Shown: piece by piece, positions 2,719-19,905 of the stretch
Layout of the letters: each line of letters opens with the position of its first letter
Position numbering within the stretch: position 1 is the stretch's first letter
From: an archaeon
GTDB lineage: Archaea > Asgardarchaeota > Thorarchaeia > Thorarchaeales > Thorarchaeaceae
DNA length: 32,000 bases
Direction of reading: 5' to 3'
Assembly (NCBI GenBank): GCA_024275415.1
Contig: JAJRZD010000019.1
Location: 44,602 to 76,601 of the forward strand
Notes under the pieces: generated by a model
Database searches by the model: none
Told to the model about the DNA's origin: nothing
Seen by the model: the letters and a program-made list of their open reading frames with translations, nothing else
Made by a program: the position numbers and the translations under genes

Positions 2719-4020
2719 ATGGGAACTGATGTACCTTGGTCGGAACTTCCTGACGGCTTTGAGTTCGGAATTGTCGAAACTGATGAAGAACTCGATGAGT
2801 TAGTCAGATTCAATAACGAAATTCACGGCCCTGAAGCAGGAGGGATGCTTCGACGACTCGTCAATCACCTGCCTGATTTCAATCGGCAAATGAACTATTT
2901 CATTCGGGATGTGGAATCTGGAAAGACAATCTCAGCTATCAGTGCCATCCCAAGTGTCTGGTCATACGGTGGGATTCCCTTACGGAACTTGGAGCTCGGA
3001 TTCGTTGGCACTCGTGAGTCATACCGAACTAGGGGAATGTTCGCATTCCTTTACAGGTTCTTCGAACATCAGCTGGAAACAGGCTACTATGATATTGCTA
3101 CGATTCAAGGTATCCCTTATTTCTATAGAAAATATGGCTACGAATTCATCTTGCCACTCGGGCGGTTCATAACAATACTCCCTTCTGCAATTCCTCACAT
3201 CTCCACTGAGGATGTACCGCCCTATATGGGAATCCGGGTTCGTCCTGCATCATCTGCGGACATCTCTGCTTTGATGGGACTATTTTCCGAGATGCAGTCA
3301 CGGCTCCTGATTACATCAGCGCGCGATGTGCGACTTTGGCAAGCACAGGAACTGACTAGGATGCATGAGGACAGACTAGTAGAAACTTTCGTCCTAGAAA
3401 GAAATGACGTGATTGATGGCTATTTCCGTATCAATGAAGCCAAGGATTCTGATGCTGAATCCGTACAATCAATCAGAGTGAGTGAATCAAGCATCAAGTC
3501 TTACGATTCTGTCATGCGAACACTTCAATTCCTCAAGAGTAGAGCCACGGATTCCAATGCTTCTGCTATCGAAATCGCTGGTGATACGACATCGAACCTT
3601 GGAAAGATAGCGATGGATTATGGTGGACTTGTGAACCGAGGCTGGAAATATCAGGTGAAGATTCCGAACGTGGTGAGCTTTATCCAGAAGATATGCCCCG
3701 TCCTGGACAAGCGATTGAAGGCATCAATGTTCAGCGAACTAACACGAGATGTTTTCATCAATACCTACAACAACTGCTACCAGATCAGTATTGAAAAGGG
3801 GAACGTGAAACACATAGCCGACATCGGGATGCAGCCGGTAGACGCATATACGAACATAAGAATCCCGCCACAGGCATTCCTCCATTTGCTCCTTGGGGAT
3901 GCCTCGATAGAAGAACTTCATGACCGACAGATGGATTTTCTAATCCGGCCGGGAGAAAAGACTCTGCTTGAGATACTATTCCCCAAGATGGCGAGCTACA
4001 TATCCTACTACCATGTCTAA
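2719..4020 (+). CDS. Eis-like GNAT acetyltransferase with C-terminal SCP2-like domain
   Basis: GNAT acetyl-CoA motif (VGTRESYRTRGMF), IQGIPYFYRKYGYEF; ORF is open from 2671, ATG at 2719 preferred. Confidence 0.75.
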   Translation: MGTDVPWSELPDGFEFGIVETDEELDELVRFNNEIHGPEAGGMLRRLVNHLPDFNRQMNYFIRDVESGKTISAISAIPSVWSYGGIPLRNLELGFVGTRESYRTRGMFAFLYRFFEHQLETGYYDIATIQGIPYFYRKYGYEFILPLGRFITILPSAIPHISTEDVPPYMGIRVRPASSADISALMGLFSEMQSRLLITSARDVRLWQAQELTRMHEDRLVETFVLERNDVIDGYFRINEAKDSDAESVQSIRVSESSIKSYDSVMRTLQFLKSRATDSNASAIEIAGDTTSNLGKIAMDYGGLVNRGWKYQVKIPNVVSFIQKICPVLDKRLKASMFSELTRDVFINTYNNCYQISIEKGNVKHIADIGMQPVDAYTNIRIPPQAFLHLLLGDASIEELHDRQMDFLIRPGEKTLLEILFPKMASYISYYHV

Positions 4021-7664: not shown

Positions 7665-8657
7665 ATGAGAGTGACCTTAGCCATCATCATATTATTACTC
7701 GTGCCCGGACTGCCCTATAGAGCAAGCCAAGCCAATTATACACCCTCCTTTGATGGTGAAGAAGCATTCAACCATCTCGTGGCTCAAACTGACTTTGGAC
7801 CACGCCCCCCTGGCTCTGATAATCTGACCAAATGTAGGAACTACATCATTAATGAGCTTGAGCAGATCGGCTGGACTGTATCTCTCCAGACCTTCACTTA
7901 TATGGACACATTCATTACAAACATAGTCGCTGAATGGCCATCAAGATCACCCTCCTTCTTTGTGGTAGGTGCTCACTATGACACCCGCCCCTATGCAGAT
8001 CAGGAGTCTGACCCAACTGACAGGACTCTTCCCGTTCTTGGTGCAAATGATGGCGCCAGTGGAGCCAGTGTCTTACTAGAACTTGCTAGAGTTCTTCCCG
8101 AAAGCATCAGGGGCTCCGTGGAGTTTGTATTCTTTGATGCTGAGGATTCAGGTAATATCAATGGGTGGGACTGGATTGTCGGCTCAACATATTATGTAGA
8201 CCAGTTAGATTAGCAGAAACGCGCTAATATCACTGGTATGATCCTGCTAGACATGGTCGGCGACGCTAATCTGGTCATCCCCCGTGAGGTCAGCTCCACC
8301 AATAGCCTTCAGGACGCTATCTGGACCACTGCAAAGGATCTGGATAATGATGACATCTTTGTGGACTCCCCCGGGGCGTCTATCCTTGACGACCACCGAC
8401 CGTTCCTCGATGCTGGTATTCCCGCAGTAGACCTGATACACTATCCATTCCCAGAAACTTGGCATACGCTGAACGACACTCCTGAGAACTGCGACCCGAA
8501 CAGCCTTCAGGCGGTTGGAGAGGTCGTGGAAACATTCCTAGTCACCAACTCTGACTCTTATCTTCCAGATGCACCATTTCCGTCCGTTACTATTGTTCTC
8601 ATCGCCCTTCTCCCAGTGTTCACGGTGGCTGCAATCAGGTTCCGTCGTCGTGAGTAG
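7665..8657 (+). CDS. Secreted, membrane-anchored M28 peptidase / glutaminyl cyclase-like protein (330 codons) with one in-frame TAG at 8211-8213
   Basis: Signal peptide; Zn-ligand motifs GAHYDT, GANDGASG, FDAED before the TAG and LLDMVG, DDHRPF, WHTLND after it; the two ORFs are in frame, joined by TAG-QKRANITG; C-terminal TM plus RFRRRE. Confidence 0.85.
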
Positions 8658-8710: not shown

Positions 8711-9607
8711 GTGAGAAACTTGGAAAAAAGGATCCTTTTCAGGCTAACCGGAGTCAAACAGGTTCCCCTCACCCATTTGGCAATCACCCCAAAGGGAGAT
8801 CGGATAGCTTGTGGCACAAGCGACGCAAGAATACTTCTCATCAATCCTACGACCAGAAAACTCCTTCGTTCTCTCACAGGACATCAATCCATGATATCGT
8901 CCCTTGCTTTCACTCATGAGGGCACTCGGATTATCTCATCCAGCTGGGACACGACCACTAGACTGTGGAGCAGCACAAAGGGCAGCCAAGAGAAATCAGT
9001 ACTCAATCACACATCTGAAATGAAAGCACTTGCGGTACATGACAAAACCGCACGAGGTGCAGTCGGCACACGAGATGGACTGGTGAAAGTGTTCTCTCTC
9101 AAATCAATGAAATGCATGAGGAACATCTCCGCTCACATCCGTGATATATCAGGCCTTGCTTTCGCATCTGATGGGACATACCTGATAACTTGCTCTTGGG
9201 ACGGGTCGGTCAAGGTCTGGGATTTGAACTCGTATAACCTGTTGAAGGATCTGGTGCGCCAGAAGGAACGGATTAGATCCATGTCCTTCTTGCCCAATGA
9301 TTCGAGAGTATATCTGGGGCTACACAATGGGGTTATCCGTTCTGTTTCTCTTGAGAATGCACGGGATGTCCACGAATTGAAAGGACATAACGATATAGTG
9401 AGTTCGCTATCTATCGACCCCTCCGGAACACTTTTGGTTTCAGGCAGCTGGGATCGAACGATTAGAATCTGGGACCTCTCATCCAACACTCCTTTTGCTG
9501 TCGAAACGGCAGGAACTGGTATCTCCTCTCTGGCATGGCACCCGTCTGCAGAATATTTCTACGCGACCGATTTCTCAGGAACTCTTGCCGAGTGGGACTT
9601 GAGTTAA
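8711..9607 (+). CDS. WD40-repeat beta-propeller protein
   Basis: Repeated GH...SWD motifs (LTGHQSMISSLAF..SSSWDTTTRLW; CSWDGSVKVWD; GHNDIVSSL..GSWDRTIRIWD); about 7 blades. Confidence 0.9.
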   Translation: MRNLEKRILFRLTGVKQVPLTHLAITPKGDRIACGTSDARILLINPTTRKLLRSLTGHQSMISSLAFTHEGTRIISSSWDTTTRLWSSTKGSQEKSVLNHTSEMKALAVHDKTARGAVGTRDGLVKVFSLKSMKCMRNISAHIRDISGLAFASDGTYLITCSWDGSVKVWDLNSYNLLKDLVRQKERIRSMSFLPNDSRVYLGLHNGVIRSVSLENARDVHELKGHNDIVSSLSIDPSGTLLVSGSWDRTIRIWDLSSNTPFAVETAGTGISSLAWHPSAEYFYATDFSGTLAEWDLS

Positions 9608-9668
9608 AGTGCAGTTTTTATGTGCGGGGATGATGGCAGTCTGCATCCTTCAGCAATCAGGCATTCCC

Positions 9669-10421
9669 CTATGAGAACACTCTCAGGTCGATGTTCAGGA
9701 ATCCCTCCTTGTGCATAATCAGCCGCACCCGTCCGTACTTCCTCTTACCAGTAACAATCGCTTGAAGGGTTTCCCGCTCAGAATTTCTACTTCGTTTGTC
9801 GAATGGGATGGGAACCTTCTCCCCCGATAGCGTAAGCACCTCGACAGCCTTCTCGAACACATCAACGAGCATCCCCGAAAGGATTATAGTGCCATGCTTG
9901 AAGTGTGGTATTTTCCCTCTTATGCTGACCAACATCTTTGATAATTGGCGATGCCTACTTATCTCTGCAGCTGCGCTCCGAATCACGTCCTTTACAAACT
10001 GGTTCGCGTATAGATGCACAAATTCAATCCGTGTCCCCTCTGAAACGCGAATCTTTTCTATGGTACCATGACCCGTCCTACCAAGGTGTTGTTCTGGGAA
10101 ATACCTGGCGACCAGTCTATCCTCAAAACGTCTTCCAAAGGACTGAAGGCTATCTTTTTCCTGCCCTCCCACTTTCCGGACAAGGAACCCTGTCACAATT
10201 CTATCGTGCAGGAACCTCTCCGCCTTGGACTTGTTGCCAATCCCTTCCTTGTAGATCGTTTTGATGGCGAAATTTGTGGCATCTGCATACACATTGAAAT
10301 CATGTTCCAAAGTCAGTTGTTTTGTGCGAGACAGTGGCACGCTAAGCAACTTGACTATCTCGACCTGTTTCTCAGACATCGCCTTCACTTGTGATGATGC
10401 TACCTTGCCTTGCTTAATCAA
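9669..10421 (-). CDS. TnpB/Cas12f-like protein comprising only the WED/REC region, with no RuvC domain
   Basis: Ordered TnpB N-half motifs: EIVKLLSVPLSRTKQLTL..YADATNFAI; ANQFVKDVIRSAA; KIPHFKHGTI; VLTLSGEKVPIPF; KYGRVRLIMHKEGFLNIDLRV; stop falls where the RuvC-I linker would begin; likely ATG at 10379. Confidence 0.65.
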   Translation of the reverse strand: MIKQGKVASSQVKAMSEKQVEIVKLLSVPLSRTKQLTLEHDFNVYADATNFAIKTIYKEGIGNKSKAERFLHDRIVTGFLVRKVGGQEKDSLQSFGRRFEDRLVARYFPEQHLGRTGHGTIEKIRVSEGTRIEFVHLYANQFVKDVIRSAAAEISRHRQLSKMLVSIRGKIPHFKHGTIILSGMLVDVFEKAVEVLTLSGEKVPIPFDKRSRNSERETLQAIVTGKRKYGRVRLIMHKEGFLNIDLRVFS

Positions 10422-10442
10422 TCTAGCTCCGGGAACAGTCGC

Positions 10443-11468
10443 TCAGAGCCTGTCTGCTATGAATCTTGCTTCAGCAATCCCCCTCTGTATTCCCTTCGGA
10501 AGCAGGTCATAGGCGCCGAACTCGAGCATGACCTTCTCATAATACTCGGGCTCGTGCTCCCGTAGATTCGCCATCAACGAGTCCCCTGACTTGTATGCAT
10601 CCTTCAAAGTCAGTAATGCCAGCCCGATCATCGTCATCGCCCTACGCATCTCAAGGACTGCAAGCTCATAATCCCCATTGAACGTCAATGTCTGTGCTCC
10701 ATAATAGTTCCGCTGTGCCTGAATCAGATGCGCTCCTGTGGGACTCTCAGGTGTGACGTTCTCATTCTCCTCAAGCCGTTCAACTGCTCTCTCAAGCCAC
10801 TCCCGTACTATCTCAAGGATCTCGACAAGCTGCTTCTCTTCCATGCCCTTGAGCCTGAAGGTTCTCAGGAAGAGCTTGTACATCGTCGGATCCAGCAGCC
10901 GGATGTTGGAAAGCACCTCTGAAGGTTTGATGATGTCAAAGATGTTGTTGCGCATGATGATCAAGCGACTCAGGTCGAATATCCCACCCCTCATCTCGTG
11001 CACCGCCGATTCGATATCGTTCTCTGCAAGATGTCCTTCCGCACGGGTCAGCTCCTCAAGTGCAATCTGTTTGATCTTTTGCATGGTCTTTTCAGGCCAT
11101 TGATAGGACTTGGCACGCTCTATCCATCTCTGCACGTCCCCGTCTTCATCAAACTCGACCCTAGCGCTCTTCAGCCTGCTTACGACCCCTGCAATCACGA
11201 ATGCATGGTCTTCGTACTCGTCGAATATCTCTTCGAACTTGGCGCTTGGGATGAAATCCATGTCTATCTTGATCCCTCTATGCTCAGCTATCAGCCTTGC
11301 AGGCGCCTCATCATCCTTCCAGACAATGACAAGGTCAAGATCTGAGCCCATCGTAGCGGTGCCTTTCACCACGGACCCGTAGGTGAAGATGCCTTTCACC
11401 TCATCCCGCTTCTTCCATTCCTCAATGGTGTCCTGAAGGGCTGCGTCAAACCTACGGCCAATATCCAT
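10443..11468 (-). CDS. Pol-beta-type minimal nucleotidyltransferase fused to two HEPN-like helical bundles
   Basis: YGSVVKGTATMGSDLDL (GS..DxD) plus IDMD; two similar helical repeats (LTRAEGHLAENDIESAVHEMR / GAQTLTFNGDYELAVLEMR). Confidence 0.75.
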   Translation of the reverse strand: MDIGRRFDAALQDTIEEWKKRDEVKGIFTYGSVVKGTATMGSDLDLVIVWKDDEAPARLIAEHRGIKIDMDFIPSAKFEEIFDEYEDHAFVIAGVVSRLKSARVEFDEDGDVQRWIERAKSYQWPEKTMQKIKQIALEELTRAEGHLAENDIESAVHEMRGGIFDLSRLIIMRNNIFDIIKPSEVLSNIRLLDPTMYKLFLRTFRLKGMEEKQLVEILEIVREWLERAVERLEENENVTPESPTGAHLIQAQRNYYGAQTLTFNGDYELAVLEMRRAMTMIGLALLTLKDAYKSGDSLMANLREHEPEYYEKVMLEFGAYDLLPKGIQRGIAEARFIADRL

Positions 11469-11628: not shown

Positions 11629-12333
11629 ATGACCAGAACCGATGGCAGAGCAAACAACGAACTACGACCTGTCACCATAACCCGCAACTACCTCAAACAC
11701 CCAGAAGGCTCAGTCCTCATATCGACCGGGGACACGAAAGTCATATGCACGGCCACCGTGGAAGAAAACACTCCCAGTTGGCTCAATGGCACCGGCCAGG
11801 GATGGGTCACCGCTGAATATGCGATGCTCCCGCGTGCCACGAACGAGCGTACCAACCGCCACAAGGTCTCGGGCAGGAACCAAGAGATACAACGCCTGAT
11901 CGGACGCTCCCTCCGCGCAGCAGTCGATATGAACCGGATGGGCGAAACGACAATCAAGGTGGACTGTGACGTGATCCAAGCAGACGGCGGCACACGGACT
12001 GCCTCTATCACTGGCGCCTATGTCGCTATGGTCGATGCCCTTGCTTACATGATCGACATGGACATCATTCCCGACCTCCCCCTGCGAGGGAACGTGGCTG
12101 CTGTCAGCGTGGGTGTGGTCGATGACGAGTGCCTGCTTGACCTCTGTTATGTGGAGGACTCGGCAGCCCAAGTGGACATGAACATCGTCATGCTGGATGA
12201 CGAGTATGTAGAGGTGCAGGGGACAGGCGAACACTCTACCTTCGACAGGCAGGCGCTGGACGAGATGCTCGACCTCGCCAAGAAAGGCATCTCCCAGCTC
12301 ATCAAGCACCAGTTGAGCGCCCTCGACCTGTAA
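11629..12333 (+). CDS. rph: Bacterial-type ribonuclease PH
   Basis: RNase PH signature [13 protein letters not shown]; [14 protein letters not shown]; [13 protein letters not shown]; [15 protein letters not shown]; EVQGTGE. Confidence 0.92.
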
Positions 12334-12823: not shown

Positions 12824-15419
12824 CGGGTGCATGAGTAAATTTGCTATTTGCTGTATGACTGTTGGTGGATGGCTTGGTTGGCAAACCGATGAAGGGCGTG
12901 ACAAGCAGCGATATTCCCTGGGTAGGCGCATGAAGCCTTTGATCCGGGGGTGCCCGAATGGGACTTCCTCGCATGGGTTAATACCCCATGTGGCTCCAGT
13001 GTCGCAGCTGGAGTGGGAACGCTCCGAACTGAAGCATCTTAGTAAGAGCAGGAAAAGAAAACAATAGTGATTCCCCTAGTAACAGCGAGCGAACGGGGAA
13101 CAGGCCAAACCGAATCCCATTGCGAAGAGTGATGGGAGATGTGGTGTGTGGGCACGGGATCTATCGCCGACGGACCTAAGACGAAGTCCTCTGGAACGAG
13201 GCGGCGGAGAGGGTGAAACCCCCGTAGTCGTAAAGTCCGGGCGTTTCCTGTGTTCCCGAGTAGCGCGGGTTGGTCTTCTCGCGTGAACGTCCCAGTCGCA
13301 ATCTGGGAAGCCTAAATATTATGCCAATCCGATAGCAAACTAGTAGCGCGAGCGAAAGTTGAAAAGAGCCGCGGAAGCGGGGTGAAAAGCACCTGAAACC
13401 AACAGTCTAAACAAAGGATGCTGATTAAAAGAGTAGACTCTCGGCGAACGAAAACGGAGTGATCCGTGTGTAGGAGCCGAGACGATCGGATTAGCATCAT
13501 CCGTCTTGAAACACGGGCCAGGGAGTTCACGGACGTGGCGAGATTAAGACATGAAGTCGTAAGCGAAGGGAAACCGACAAGCCCGCAGCCTTCGGGTGAG
13601 GGGCGAGGTGTGATAAGTGCCTGTAGTCACAGCCGTGACACGAGAAACCAGTCGATCTTGGCGTGGGCAGGGTGAAGCCGGGCGAAAGCTCGGTGGAGGC
13701 CCGAAAGGGTTCTGACGTGCAACTCGTTCCGTTGACCTGCGCGAAGGGGTAAAAGGCTTATCTAGACTGGTGATTGCTCGTTCTCCGCGAAGTTGGTCGT
13801 AGCCAAGCCCCACTCGAGGTATCATGTGGTGTAGAGCACTTTTGGAAGCGCCCGGGGGACGTCAAGTCCTTCACCTTCCCGAAAACTCCGAAGCTGCATG
13901 AACTGTAGACGGTGGGAGACGGGTGCCCGGGGTAAGCCCGGCAGGCCGAGATGGGGAGAACCGAGAGTATGGTTAAGGTCCCTAAGTGCCGGATAAGTGC
14001 GGTGAAGAAGGGAGTCGAGAGCCCAAGACAGTCTGGGGGTGAGCTTAGAGGCAGCTATCCCCGAACGAAAGCGTAACAGCTCACAGACCGAGGCTCTCGG
14101 CCTTGAAAATGGACGGGGCTCAATCCGGCCACCGAGACCATACAGCACACGAGTACCATCGTGTGATCTGGTAGCGGAGCGATCTGGTAGGGTAGAAGTG
14201 GGGCCGTGAGGTCCCGTGGACCTGCCAGATTTGATGATCCTGGCGGTAGTAACAGCGTAGCATGGTGAGAATCCATGTCACCGAAAGGGAAAGGGTTCTT
14301 CGGCGATGCGTCATCAGCCGAAGCTTAGTCGGTCCTAAGTGGCGTCGTAACTCGAGCGTCACGAAAGGGAATCAGGTTAATATTCCTGAACCTCGGAGAT
14401 ACATTTCACGGTAACGTAAAGCCGGGTCTGTGACTCATCTGGACAGGCCAAACGCAGCTCTCGCTGTGTTTAACACTATAAGCCTACCGAGTACCGTAAT
14501 GGTGAGAAGTAGGTGAAGGGTGGAATAGCGGGTGGTCGGACACCCGTTTGGCTCATTCCTGGTGACCTTGAAAAACAGATCCGGAAGGATTCTCCGAGTC
14601 CGTACCCAGAACTGACACAGGTTCCCTGGCTGAGAAGGCCAAGGTGTATCCGGGTCACTCCTCCTGAGGGAAATCGGCCAATTAGCGGCGTAACTTCGGG
14701 ATATGCCGTGCCTGGGTTAGTGCAAGCTTTCCTAGGTCTTAGTAACTCAGGGGTCCCAACTGTTTAATACAAACATAGCTGACTGCGAGCGGGAAACCGT
14801 TAGTACAGTCAGTGAATCCTGGTCTGTGCCTGTCTGTTAAAACTCAGAAATGGGTCGAAGCACAGGTTAACGCCGGGACTAACTATGAGTCTCTTAAGGT
14901 AGCCAAATGCCTTGTCGGTTAAATGCCGACGTGCATGAAGGGAGCAATGAGGTCCCCACTGTCCCCAGGAGGAACCGGGTGAACCCACACCATACCGAAC
15001 AGTGTATGTACGCCCAATGGGAAGAGAAGTCACTGCGGAGGTTTACTACGCAGTCTGTCGTTGCCATTTCTGATATCATACAGAGTATAGTCAGGAGCGA
15101 CGAAGCACGTTCTCCGGGACGTGTGGATGCGACCGTGTAATACTGACTATGGTATTGGGGATGGCTAACCTAGACCAAGCGAGTCTAGGGACACCGGCAG
15201 ATAGGCAGTTGGGCTGGGGCGGCACAGGGCTGACAAGAGATCAGCCCTGACCAATGGTGGACTCAGAGGCGACGGAAACGTCTCGTCGAGATCAAGGGCA
15301 TAAGTCCGCCTGACAGGATCCCTAACAGCAACGGATCCTGGGACGAAAGTCTGGCCTAGCGAACGTTTACATGCCAATTGTAGGGCGGTAGACATGACAA
15401 AAAACTTACCCCAGGGGTA

Positions 15420-16210
15420 ATCTCTAGCCGGTCGTCAAAAGGCGAGGATAATAAATACATCATTGCCATTTAATGAGTGGAAAAAAATGGAACGTTGGGA
15501 CATATCAGATGATGAAGACTTTGAGAAGGAGAATCTGGATAGACCAGAAACTCTGGTTCGAAGGTACATTGAACAGTTGTTCAAGGGTACAGATCGCATC
15601 ACTGAAACAATGTTAGCCAGCGTAAACATAGCCTATCTCGCAGGCATTACTGAAGATGCCCACCTTGGCCAAGGTGGAAAAGAAGGATATGTCTTTGACA
15701 TCGAGTCTAAATCAGAACGATGGCTCACTGACTTAATTATGCCTGCACTCAGACTTGAGATTCCTGAAAAGGAAATTAGAGTCAAACGACGTGGTACCAG
15801 ACCTGAGTATCGTATTCAGGTATGGGACAAAAAACTCGTTGAAACCCTTCGAGTATTATTCGAAAGACCTGGAATAGTCCGTCTGTGGAGTATTCGAAAT
15901 CAACGAGCGTGGGTGCGTGGTTTTGCTGATGCTGAAGGATCAGCAACTCGTAACACGGACAAACAACCACAATTTAGTTTCTACAACCAAAACTTGGAGA
16001 AACTTAAGATAGCAGGCGAAATCCTTGAAAAAGATGGAATCCACTTTGGCTTCTACCTACCAAATGGTAGAGATGTGTGGCAAATGTATCTAACAGGACG
16101 CGAGAATCTAAAACGTTTCCTTGATGGGGAAGCTTCTGGGGTGAGCCATCCTGAGAAACGTTCACGCTTACTTCAATTCCTTGCTGAGTAGCGCCGACTA
16201 GGGACCCTAA
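15420..16210 (+). mobile_element. Archaeal BHB-type rRNA intron (791 nt) in the peptidyl-transferase centre
   Basis: Interrupts CCAGGGGTA|ACAGAGTCGTC; GGGG:CCCT 4-bp helix flanked by TAA and AAA 3-nt bulges; intron stem TCTCTAG:CTAGGGA; AT-richer than the flanking rRNA. Confidence 0.9.
15463..16191 (+). CDS. Intron-encoded double-motif LAGLIDADG homing endonuclease
   Basis: Motif 1 AYLAGITEDAHLG, motif 2 AWVRGFADAEGSA, followed by FSFYNQNLEKLK; start could be TTG at 15463 or a slightly later ATG (MERW). Confidence 0.88.
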   Translation: MPFNEWKKMERWDISDDEDFEKENLDRPETLVRRYIEQLFKGTDRITETMLASVNIAYLAGITEDAHLGQGGKEGYVFDIESKSERWLTDLIMPALRLEIPEKEIRVKRRGTRPEYRIQVWDKKLVETLRVLFERPGIVRLWSIRNQRAWVRGFADAEGSATRNTDKQPQFSFYNQNLEKLKIAGEILEKDGIHFGFYLPNGRDVWQMYLTGRENLKRFLDGEASGVSHPEKRSRLLQFLAE

Positions 16211-16493
16211 ACAGAGTCGTCGCGGGCAAGAGTTCATATCGACCCCGCGGCTTGCTTCCTCGATGTCGGCTCTTGGTATCCTGGCGTTGCATAAGGCGCC
16301 AAGGGTGCGGGTGCTCACCGATTAAAACCGAACGTGAGCTGGGTTTAGACCGTTGCGAGACAGGTTGGTTTCTATCTATTGGGCGTGTTGGTCAACTGAC
16401 GGCAAGATGTTACCGGTACGAGAGGAACGTAATGTCGCGACCAATGGTGTACCCATTGTCCGATAGGGCAGCGTGGGGTAGCTAAGTCGTAAT

Positions 16494-16526
<33 letters not shown>

Positions 16527-16724
16527 AGACCGGAAAATAGTTGACCACTTAAGTGACGGTCCTACCGAAGGAGCGCGGGGCTGGTGACAGCGACGCGTAG
16601 TCACGAAACGAGGGTTCTGCTAGAAGAGCAGGTTAATAGGGCAGGGGTGTAAGTACCGAGCTCCGGCGAGGTATTCAGCTCACTGCTACTAATACCCGAG
16701 GCAAGCGAATTCAAAGTGCATCTC

Positions 16725-19407: not shown

Positions 19408-19905
19408 ACTTAACTATTGTTTATAACACTTATATGTTACGTCATTGTCCATGTGCATTCATTTAACCGTTTATTGTAAGCTGGACAGATCAGGACACCC
19501 GAGTGTTGCCATCCCAGAAACGGCACTGGGAACGACTCTGTATGGTCAGCAACGTGTGTCGTTCGACCTTGTGTCATAGTACTGTCCGGTTGTATATGAG
19601 CACCGACTACGAAACGTCTATCTTTGTTTAGTTCTCTCACAGCTGTCGCCAACTCCAATCTTTGTTTTTTGATTGCCTACAAGTTGGTCGCAAGGATATT
19701 ATGCAATTGCCGGCATACAAGGAGGTGAATTGAAGCATGCCATTCACTCGCAATGGTTCTTGTATCATTGGAATTGTTGCCACGAGGTTCAACAGCAGGA
19801 GAATTCCCTACAAAAAACATGAATTTATCACCATGCTAGGAATTTATCCGTTCGCCAGTGAGAAAGACATAACTATGATGACTGGAATGGTAATATGCTT
19901 GTGAG

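Follow-up and report, generated by a model that had tools for sequence, protein, structure and literature searches.

A predicted stand-alone WED and REC lobe of the TnpB/Cas12f type in the core gene set of one family of Asgard archaea

The locus and the gene

The DNA analysed here, called the window throughout, is a stretch of 32,000 nucleotides (nt) from contig JAJRZD010000019.1 (assembly GCA_024275415.1) of a thorarchaeal member of the Asgard archaea. Its minus strand carries a gene, referred to here as X, that is preceded by a nucleotidyltransferase gene on the same strand and meets a convergent WD40 gene at its 3' side, with genes for RNase PH and 23S rRNA lying beyond the nucleotidyltransferase (Table 1). 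The product of X is a predicted derivative of the TnpB/Cas12f type from which the nuclease lobe is missing, and comparable genes occupy the same locus across one Asgard family. We consider below what this protein is, how it may have arisen and which activity it may have retained.

The coding region had originally been placed at 9669-10421, where a mechanical list gives a minus-strand open reading frame (ORF) of 250 codons counted from a TTG. The frame is indeed intact, but the start lies farther in, as alignment with 22 homologues puts it at residue 15 of the listed frame, an ATG located at 10379-10377. An N-terminal extension past the conserved methionine occurs in only 9 of the 22 aligned homologues and mostly measures about 3 residues, and the TTG at 10421 falls inside a conserved upstream motif, TAGATTGATTAAG. 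From these alignments, the 14 codons ahead of the ATG are probably untranslated. The distance between the nucleotidyltransferase stop and X is accordingly 63 nt, not the 21 bp that had been reported behind this gene, then labelled MNT. The X protein has an isoelectric point (pI) of 10.1 and a net charge of +15, and the same basic character extends to all 25 family members (pI 9.2-11.0, net charge +4 to +16), which contain 0-2 cysteines each. Among the basic motifs kept in the family alignment are RHRKLAK, KIPHFK, PFDKRSRNRE and RVRL, and invariant positions include Y45, N50, Q141, D145, K170, P172, F174, S182, R231 and R233.

Table 1. Position of X and of the features around it (numbered from the first nucleotide of the window)
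Feature	Position	Strand	Remarks
X, predicted RuvC-less TnpB/Cas12f derivative (stand-alone WED and REC), coding sequence	9669..10379	-	236 amino acids (aa); stop 9669-9671, ATG 10379-10377
Additional 14 codons of the listed ORF (TTG at 10421)	10380..10421	-	overlap the promoter motif
Shine-Dalgarno-like GTGAAGG	10382..10388	-	upstream of the ATG of X
B recognition element (BRE)/TATA-like motif TAGATTGATTAAG	10413..10425	-	ends about 34 nt upstream of the ATG of X
Gap between the X stop and the convergent WD40 stop	9608..9668	.	61 nt; too short for an omegaRNA scaffold; contains a weak stem only and no RuvC remnant
KNTase-like nucleotidyltransferase	10443..11468	-	341 aa; PF01909 at 2e-09; upstream same-strand neighbour of X
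RNase PH	11629..12333	+	divergent from the nucleotidyltransferase; syntenic product with PF01138 and PF03725 in all homologous loci
23S rRNA gene	12841..16711	+	Rfam RF02540, 2403 bits; co-oriented, about 500 nt downstream of RNase PH
WD40 beta-propeller gene	8711..9607	+	convergent, bounds the 3' side of X; Pfam WD40 at 1.8e-43

The motif upstream of X takes the form TAGATTGATTA(A/G)G in the spacer before the gene, and of 16 distinct loci, 14 have its core ATTGATTA equally far from the gene. TATA-like boxes take its place in the most divergent X loci, and a similar motif, TAGATTCATATTC or, in the other clade, AGATAGnTTTTATT, is found in the promoter region of the nucleotidyltransferase. We read the motif as the predicted BRE/TATA promoter of X itself, although autoregulation may still occur; X therefore looks like a transcription unit of its own. 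In the majority of X loci, a GTGA-type motif precedes the start codon by no more than about 10 nt and presumably serves as a Shine-Dalgarno sequence. The sequence TTGAT within the upstream motif is the transposon-associated motif (TAM) of ISDra2 TnpB (PMC10097598), and the motif was therefore also tested as an operator bound by X or as a relic TAM. This possibility was rejected in view of the lack of genome-wide enrichment, the TATA-like boxes in divergent loci and the similar nucleotidyltransferase promoter. Two further copies of GATTGATTAA were located elsewhere in the genome in a repeat of about 70 nt (G000 C57:~19520-19600 and C12:~2980-3060; L032 and L033). This repeat lies upstream of ORFs without a Pfam match, no link to X was seen, and it may be a repeated regulatory element or the end of a mobile element.

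Fold of the X protein and the question of a guide RNA

A model of X was generated with AlphaFold2 on an alignment of 23 sequences and reached a predicted local distance difference test score (pLDDT) of 84.4 and a predicted template modelling score (pTM) of 0.82, with weak regions only in the first 17 residues, a non-conserved extension, and in one lineage-specific loop. The modelled chain passes from a single strand (beta1) through a helical REC domain (residues 32-163) into a beta-barrel (residues 178-249). In a Foldseek comparison with the PDB, ranks 1-39 were all Cas12-type chains (Cas12f, Cas12n, Cas-lambda, Cas12o, Cas12m and Cas12g), and TnpB chains had weaker E-values, though they were still among the top 50. 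Alignment with VIA-align gave a Z score of 15.1 against residues 3-212 of SpCas12f1 (root-mean-square deviation [rmsd] 3.6 A over 172 residues), 13-14 against residues 1-209 of AsCas12f, 11.8 against Fanzor2 and 11.1 against residues 2-175 of ISDra2 TnpB. The matches to the model among AlphaFold Database clusters and in the ESM Atlas are TnpB families, and those in the ESM Atlas have template modelling (TM) scores by query of 0.53-0.59 and rmsd values of 2.5-3.1 A over 153-173 residues, with 2.5-3.0 A over 165-173 residues for the TnpB clusters. Beyond the WED and REC lobe of Cas12f, TnpB and Fanzor, no other fold was convincingly matched. A match to this lobe had been anticipated in the original prediction, and the model, Foldseek and VIA-align all bear it out.

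In ISDra2 TnpB, WED comprises residues 1-12 and 117-176, REC residues 13-116, and RuvC begins at 185 (PMC10097598); set against these boundaries, X terminates at the junction of WED and RuvC, where it had been said to stop. According to the model, X is exactly the WED and REC lobe of the TnpB/Cas12f type without RuvC. The RuvC domain with its D-E-D triad is absent from a protein that ends at the WED boundary, and the TNB zinc finger is absent from the family, as the 25 members have few cysteines (0-2) and no PF07282 match. No RuvC or TNB remnant was detected beside X either, where the convergent WD40 gene ends 61 nt downstream, and the five PF07282 matches in the genome are all on other contigs, in keeping with the earlier statement that no RuvC remnant follows the gene.

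At the level of sequence, no member of the family (25 searched) matched TnpB or any other Pfam profile, and a phmmer search of the PDB with X returned nothing relevant. Profile comparison by hhalign of X with the TnpBs of the same genome and with an alignment of thorarchaeal TnpB N-termini gave probabilities of 0.1-0.4% (0.4% for the alignment of N-termini). The sole sequence-level hint is a match to NCBIfam Cas12f2 (E 0.047) over residues 32-59, the first REC helix. The original prediction had traced TnpB through X motif by motif. All of the motifs that it quoted are present in the translation, and a resemblance of the alignments can be seen by eye in the L-x-x-x-x-Q...N-x-x-I start and the P-x-F-K motif, but the colinearity is without statistical significance in the Pfam and hhalign comparisons.

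The same prediction took X for a candidate RNA-guided DNA binder, with a guide encoded elsewhere or overlapping genes. This reading has precedents in TldR and dCas12f-sigmaE, nuclease-dead descendants of TnpB/Cas12f that act as RNA-guided regulators, and the retained lobe would bring with it the cleft for the TAM, some of the WED surface that binds the scaffold, and the side of the heteroduplex channel that REC forms. In ISDra2 TnpB, the cleft of WED and REC accommodates the TAM duplex, WED and RuvC together hold the omegaRNA scaffold, where WED contacts the pseudoknot and stem 4 of the RNA, and REC and RuvC make up the channel for the heteroduplex (PMC10097598). By analogy with this structure, X would keep the TAM-reading site whole, together with half of the scaffold site and half of the heteroduplex channel. 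The characterised guided relatives all keep RuvC, whose helices alpha1 and alpha2 hold the scaffold (PMC10097598; TldR preprint), and in the binary complex of TldR with its guide RNA only these two RuvC helices are ordered on the RNA (TldR preprint).

Searches around and within the gene revealed no RNA of this kind. The 61-nt gap, in which only a weak stem had been noted, forms no stable structure (minimum free energy -15.2 kcal/mol, z +0.36 against shuffled sequences), and since z for the other flank is +0.86, both sides of X fold no better than shuffled sequence. Rfam gave no match beside X and only rRNA in the window. The omegaRNA of tnpB genes begins at the 3' end of the coding sequence; in X, no stretch of the coding sequence stands out by synonymous constraint, which is weakest at the 3' end. 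The room downstream is also small among homologues, in which the coding sequence overlaps the next gene by 17 nt at one extreme and is followed by a spacer of 65 nt at the other. With neither a structured or conserved RNA beside or inside X nor the RuvC helices that anchor a guide, the attribute "RNA-guided" found no support, and we regard this reading as unlikely; canonical targeting guided by an omegaRNA is less likely than recognition of a short motif in double-stranded DNA (dsDNA). A more specific proposal, that proteins of about 190-236 aa such as X carry out programmable RNA-guided DNA recognition with a guide encoded in trans, appears improbable. If it were true, no natural module for RNA-guided DNA binding would be smaller than X, and an Asgard lineage would have it as a core regulator.

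Distribution, selection and genomic neighbourhood

Homologues were collected by a word-indexed search, which found 24, and by an exhaustive profile search, which gave 22 clusters at 50% identity; they carry the source name Candidatus Thorarchaeota. Full-length members measure 179-243 aa, and none has a nuclease lobe. Short-form members are without the REC insertion of about 45 residues, and a lone member of 377 aa (L013 5001-6134, P0036) has WED and REC fused to C-terminal repeats of helical units of about 35 residues. This extension has no Pfam match and hence no RuvC or TNB. X is present in 80 of the 87 genomes of its class, including 23 of the 24 high-quality ones, and in none of the 80 is the match interrupted by a stop codon. 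Within the phylum, 65 of the 70 genomes from one Asgard family have it, once per genome, and 0 of 262 from 29 other families. In G017, a genome of the same genus, contigs C67 and C82 hold two pairs of nucleotidyltransferase and X, of which one X is long-form and the other short-form; this suggests a mixed bin (listed contamination 6%) rather than a duplication.

For three pairs with unsaturated synonymous divergence (synonymous divergence dS of 0.30, 0.78 and 1.32), the ratio of nonsynonymous to synonymous divergence (dN/dS) of X is 0.21, 0.12 and 0.18, respectively, and that of the adjoining nucleotidyltransferase 0.09, 0.08 and 0.11. To judge from these substitution patterns and from its distribution, X is a functional protein-coding gene under purifying selection and a core gene of one Asgard family. 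X is not a recent truncation, as the family is old and is conserved in length and synteny. Short ORFs that comprise WED and REC only and are labelled as transposase fragments are common in databases, and X might accordingly be taken for a decaying transposon fragment or a spurious ORF. This is extremely improbable for an intact, single-copy gene that is present in nearly all high-quality genomes of the class, shows dN/dS of 0.12-0.21 and has a conserved promoter and locus. The original prediction had named two ways in which it could fail, a structure unlike WED and REC or a lone truncation of a TnpB from an insertion sequence (IS), and neither was found. The homologues of like length, the shared synteny and the purifying selection that it had proposed to look for are all there (179-243 aa, a fixed locus and the dN/dS values above).

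The gene order around X is alike in all 13 contexts compared, down to X members that are about 30% identical. RNase PH lies on the opposite strand, followed by a nucleotidyltransferase of 340-345 aa and, 49-141 nt downstream on the same strand, by X. After X there is usually the convergent WD40 gene and then genes for an M28 peptidase, a flavin adenine dinucleotide (FAD)-dependent reductase, an acetyltransferase and a PNP-family product. WD40 is present at most loci and missing in two (L011 and L013), and some loci have an unannotated ORF of about 300 aa between RNase PH and the nucleotidyltransferase. No transposase family is listed next to X in any of the 13 contexts, X occupies one fixed locus throughout, and a whole-genome search found it as a single copy in its own genome; a fixed chromosomal setting outside an IS and without tnpA, as originally described, is thus confirmed. 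Together with the fold, the distribution and the selection, this bears out the earlier view of X as a domesticated RuvC-less derivative of TnpB.

Full-length TnpB is encoded elsewhere in the same genome by three genes, all on other contigs and found as 3 strong matches, and TnpB is abundant in Thorarchaeota. X could accordingly be imagined as a dominant-negative regulator kept by the host, competing with resident TnpB for TAM sites or omegaRNAs in the manner of truncated transposase-derived inhibitors. X has no detectable sequence similarity to the resident TnpBs, so that a shared TAM or omegaRNA specificity is not implied, and it is a stable core gene through the history of the family, whereas IS content varies; we consider such a role very unlikely. 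One of the three TnpB genes encodes 409 aa with HTH_OrfB_IS605, OrfB_IS605 and TNB domains and overlaps by 4 nt with a gene for a serine-recombinase (Resolvase) TnpA of 190 aa. This pair (L032 2820-4618, G000:C57) is an IS607-type element.

The neighbours of X raise a different possibility, namely that X is an RNA-binding accessory of an RNA 3'-end module in which WED and REC present a structured RNA, for instance pre-rRNA or tRNA, to the nucleotidyltransferase, to RNase PH or to both. The nucleotidyltransferase adjoins X at every locus examined, always directly upstream on the same strand, and its catalytic GS...DLD...D motifs (G31, S32, D43, D45 and D69) are invariant in the alignment. RNase PH and 23S rRNA genes adjoin in the window and in five further loci, the WED domain of TnpB touches RNA, as described above, and X is very basic. 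Other observations speak against an accessory role. The closest folds to the nucleotidyltransferase model (pLDDT 89.9), which are kanamycin nucleotidyltransferase ANT(4'), YgxA, LinB, Hailong HalB and GlnD-type enzymes, have small molecules, proteins or dATP as their substrates and not clearly RNA; X has a conserved promoter-like motif of its own; and about ten genes of the neighbourhood are syntenic, which makes adjacency unspecific. Moreover, both the nucleotidyltransferase and RNase PH occur without X in a sister family. There, a single genome (L031, G001:C23:89000-98500) encodes an orthologous nucleotidyltransferase of 342 aa (E 7e-83) about 3 kb from RNase PH, with a PmbA/TldD pair in between. 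Downstream of this nucleotidyltransferase are genes for a 102-aa membrane protein and a profilin-like protein, and neither a divergent X nor a full TnpB was found. Since the sister family has the nucleotidyltransferase without X, X would be a later and separable addition at the base of one family. Co-folding of X with the nucleotidyltransferase gave a score of 0.02 and a mark of 0.32, which were counted neither for nor against an association. On balance, a function in RNA 3'-end processing is a possible but doubtful account of X, though the foremost of the alternatives considered.

Several features of the neighbourhood were recorded in their own right. In the window and at L001, L003, L008, L010 and L013, the RNase PH gene precedes the 23S gene in the same orientation by 0.5-0.9 kb; this pairing of a gene for an RNA 3'-exonuclease with a 23S gene that is unlinked is conserved. 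The 23S match spans 3871 nt against a model of 2987 positions, which corresponds to an insertion of about 0.8-0.9 kb, and a 242-aa ORF (15463-16191) is located within the match. One in-frame TAG at 8211-8213 (GAT TAG CAG) interrupts the M28 peptidase gene (7665-8657, plus strand) and leaves two ORFs in one frame, of 182 and 139 aa; the syntenic orthologues of this gene are single ORFs of 329-367 aa. The TAG may be an error of the assembly, a nonsense mutation or a stop codon that is read through.

Proposed origin and function, and comparison with known systems

We propose that, in the organism ancestral to one Asgard family (Thorarchaeota), a TnpB/Cas12f-type element landed downstream of the nucleotidyltransferase gene. 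The whole nuclease lobe, comprising RuvC and the TNB zinc finger, would then have been lost along with any guide-RNA gene, and the remaining WED and REC lobe would have turned into a core gene of the host, present in single copy and driven by a promoter of its own. In this form, X may act as a stand-alone, guide-independent binder of nucleic acids by way of the retained WED/REC cleft. Because only the TAM cleft lies wholly in the retained lobe, the likeliest activity is the reading of a short dsDNA motif, and X would most likely serve as a DNA-binding or regulatory factor. We assign a probability of about 0.5 to this reading, which builds on analogy with the TnpB structure.

Several considerations weigh against it. 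Exact copies of the upstream motif are not enriched genome-wide (15 of GATTGATTAR, and 43 of ATTGATTAR against about 76 expected). The link between X and TnpB, as seen through the model, is structural and without significant sequence similarity. WED is an oligonucleotide/oligosaccharide-binding (OB) fold that, in TnpB, binds RNA stems as well, and X might by analogy do the same. A neighbourhood of RNase PH, nucleotidyltransferase and 23S rRNA genes points to RNA metabolism, and a guide RNA may be encoded in trans.

A guide-independent reader of short dsDNA motifs, or any other function of the isolated lobe, would be of interest for several reasons. X may represent a novel class of factors that bind DNA or RNA, and it occurs in Asgard archaea, where gene regulation and RNA biology attract particular interest. 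X indicates that the recognition lobe alone can stay under selection through the diversification of a whole archaeal family and would offer a natural experiment on the WED/REC lobe without the nuclease lobe, which bears on the engineering of very small DNA-targeting modules.

With TnpB of the IS200/IS605/IS607 elements and with Cas12f, X shares the N-terminal lobe, that is, WED beta1, the inserted helical REC and the WED beta-barrel. Unlike these proteins, it is without RuvC, TNB, the C-terminal domain, an adjacent omegaRNA, tnpA and IS ends, and unlike IS elements it is single-copy and immobile. The surveyed exaptations of TnpB/Cas12 (type V effectors, Cas12k, Cas12m, TldR, dCas12f-sigmaE and GATase-TnpB) all keep RuvC, whether active or dead. 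In the 2023 census of TnpB and Cas12, exaptations either keep an inactive RuvC, as in the TldR/flagellin, DppD and sigma-factor systems, lose only RuvC-III, or drop REC, and the search profiles of that census included RuvC segments (PMC10691335). Censuses that use profiles of this kind may overlook families such as that of X.

Full-text searches of the literature gave no description of an exapted family consisting of WED and REC only. The ESM Atlas holds clusters of proteins of 184-222 aa with WED and REC only, with 91-118 members each, from Methanobacteriota, Cyanobacteriota and Pseudomonadota, and these may be IS debris or further independent domestications. They belong to other lineages than X, none of them is among its matches in sequence searches, and X is set apart from them as an Asgard core gene.

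The closest parallels are found among immobilised descendants of these nucleases. Like TldR and dCas12f-sigmaE, X is an exapted, nuclease-inactive and immobilised descendant of TnpB/Cas12f in a conserved neighbourhood of host genes. The TldRs are bacterial and retain an adjacent guide RNA as well as a degenerate RuvC, in which RuvC-III alone is missing in some cases, whereas the archaeal X of Asgard origin has neither. Measured against TnpB and TldR together, X has the recognition lobe and an immobilised neighbourhood similar to that of TldR, and it is without RuvC, TNB, an adjacent guide RNA and the mobility of TnpB. GATase-TnpB of Sulfolobaceae (about 280 aa) resembles X in being archaeal, immobilised, shrunken and placed beside a host gene without space for an RNA downstream, and it keeps WED and an active RuvC and loses REC (PMC10691335). 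X is the reverse case, with WED and REC kept and the nuclease lost. X is best regarded as a hitherto undescribed variety of TnpB exaptation, in which the nuclease lobe is wholly gone and the recognition lobe is kept.

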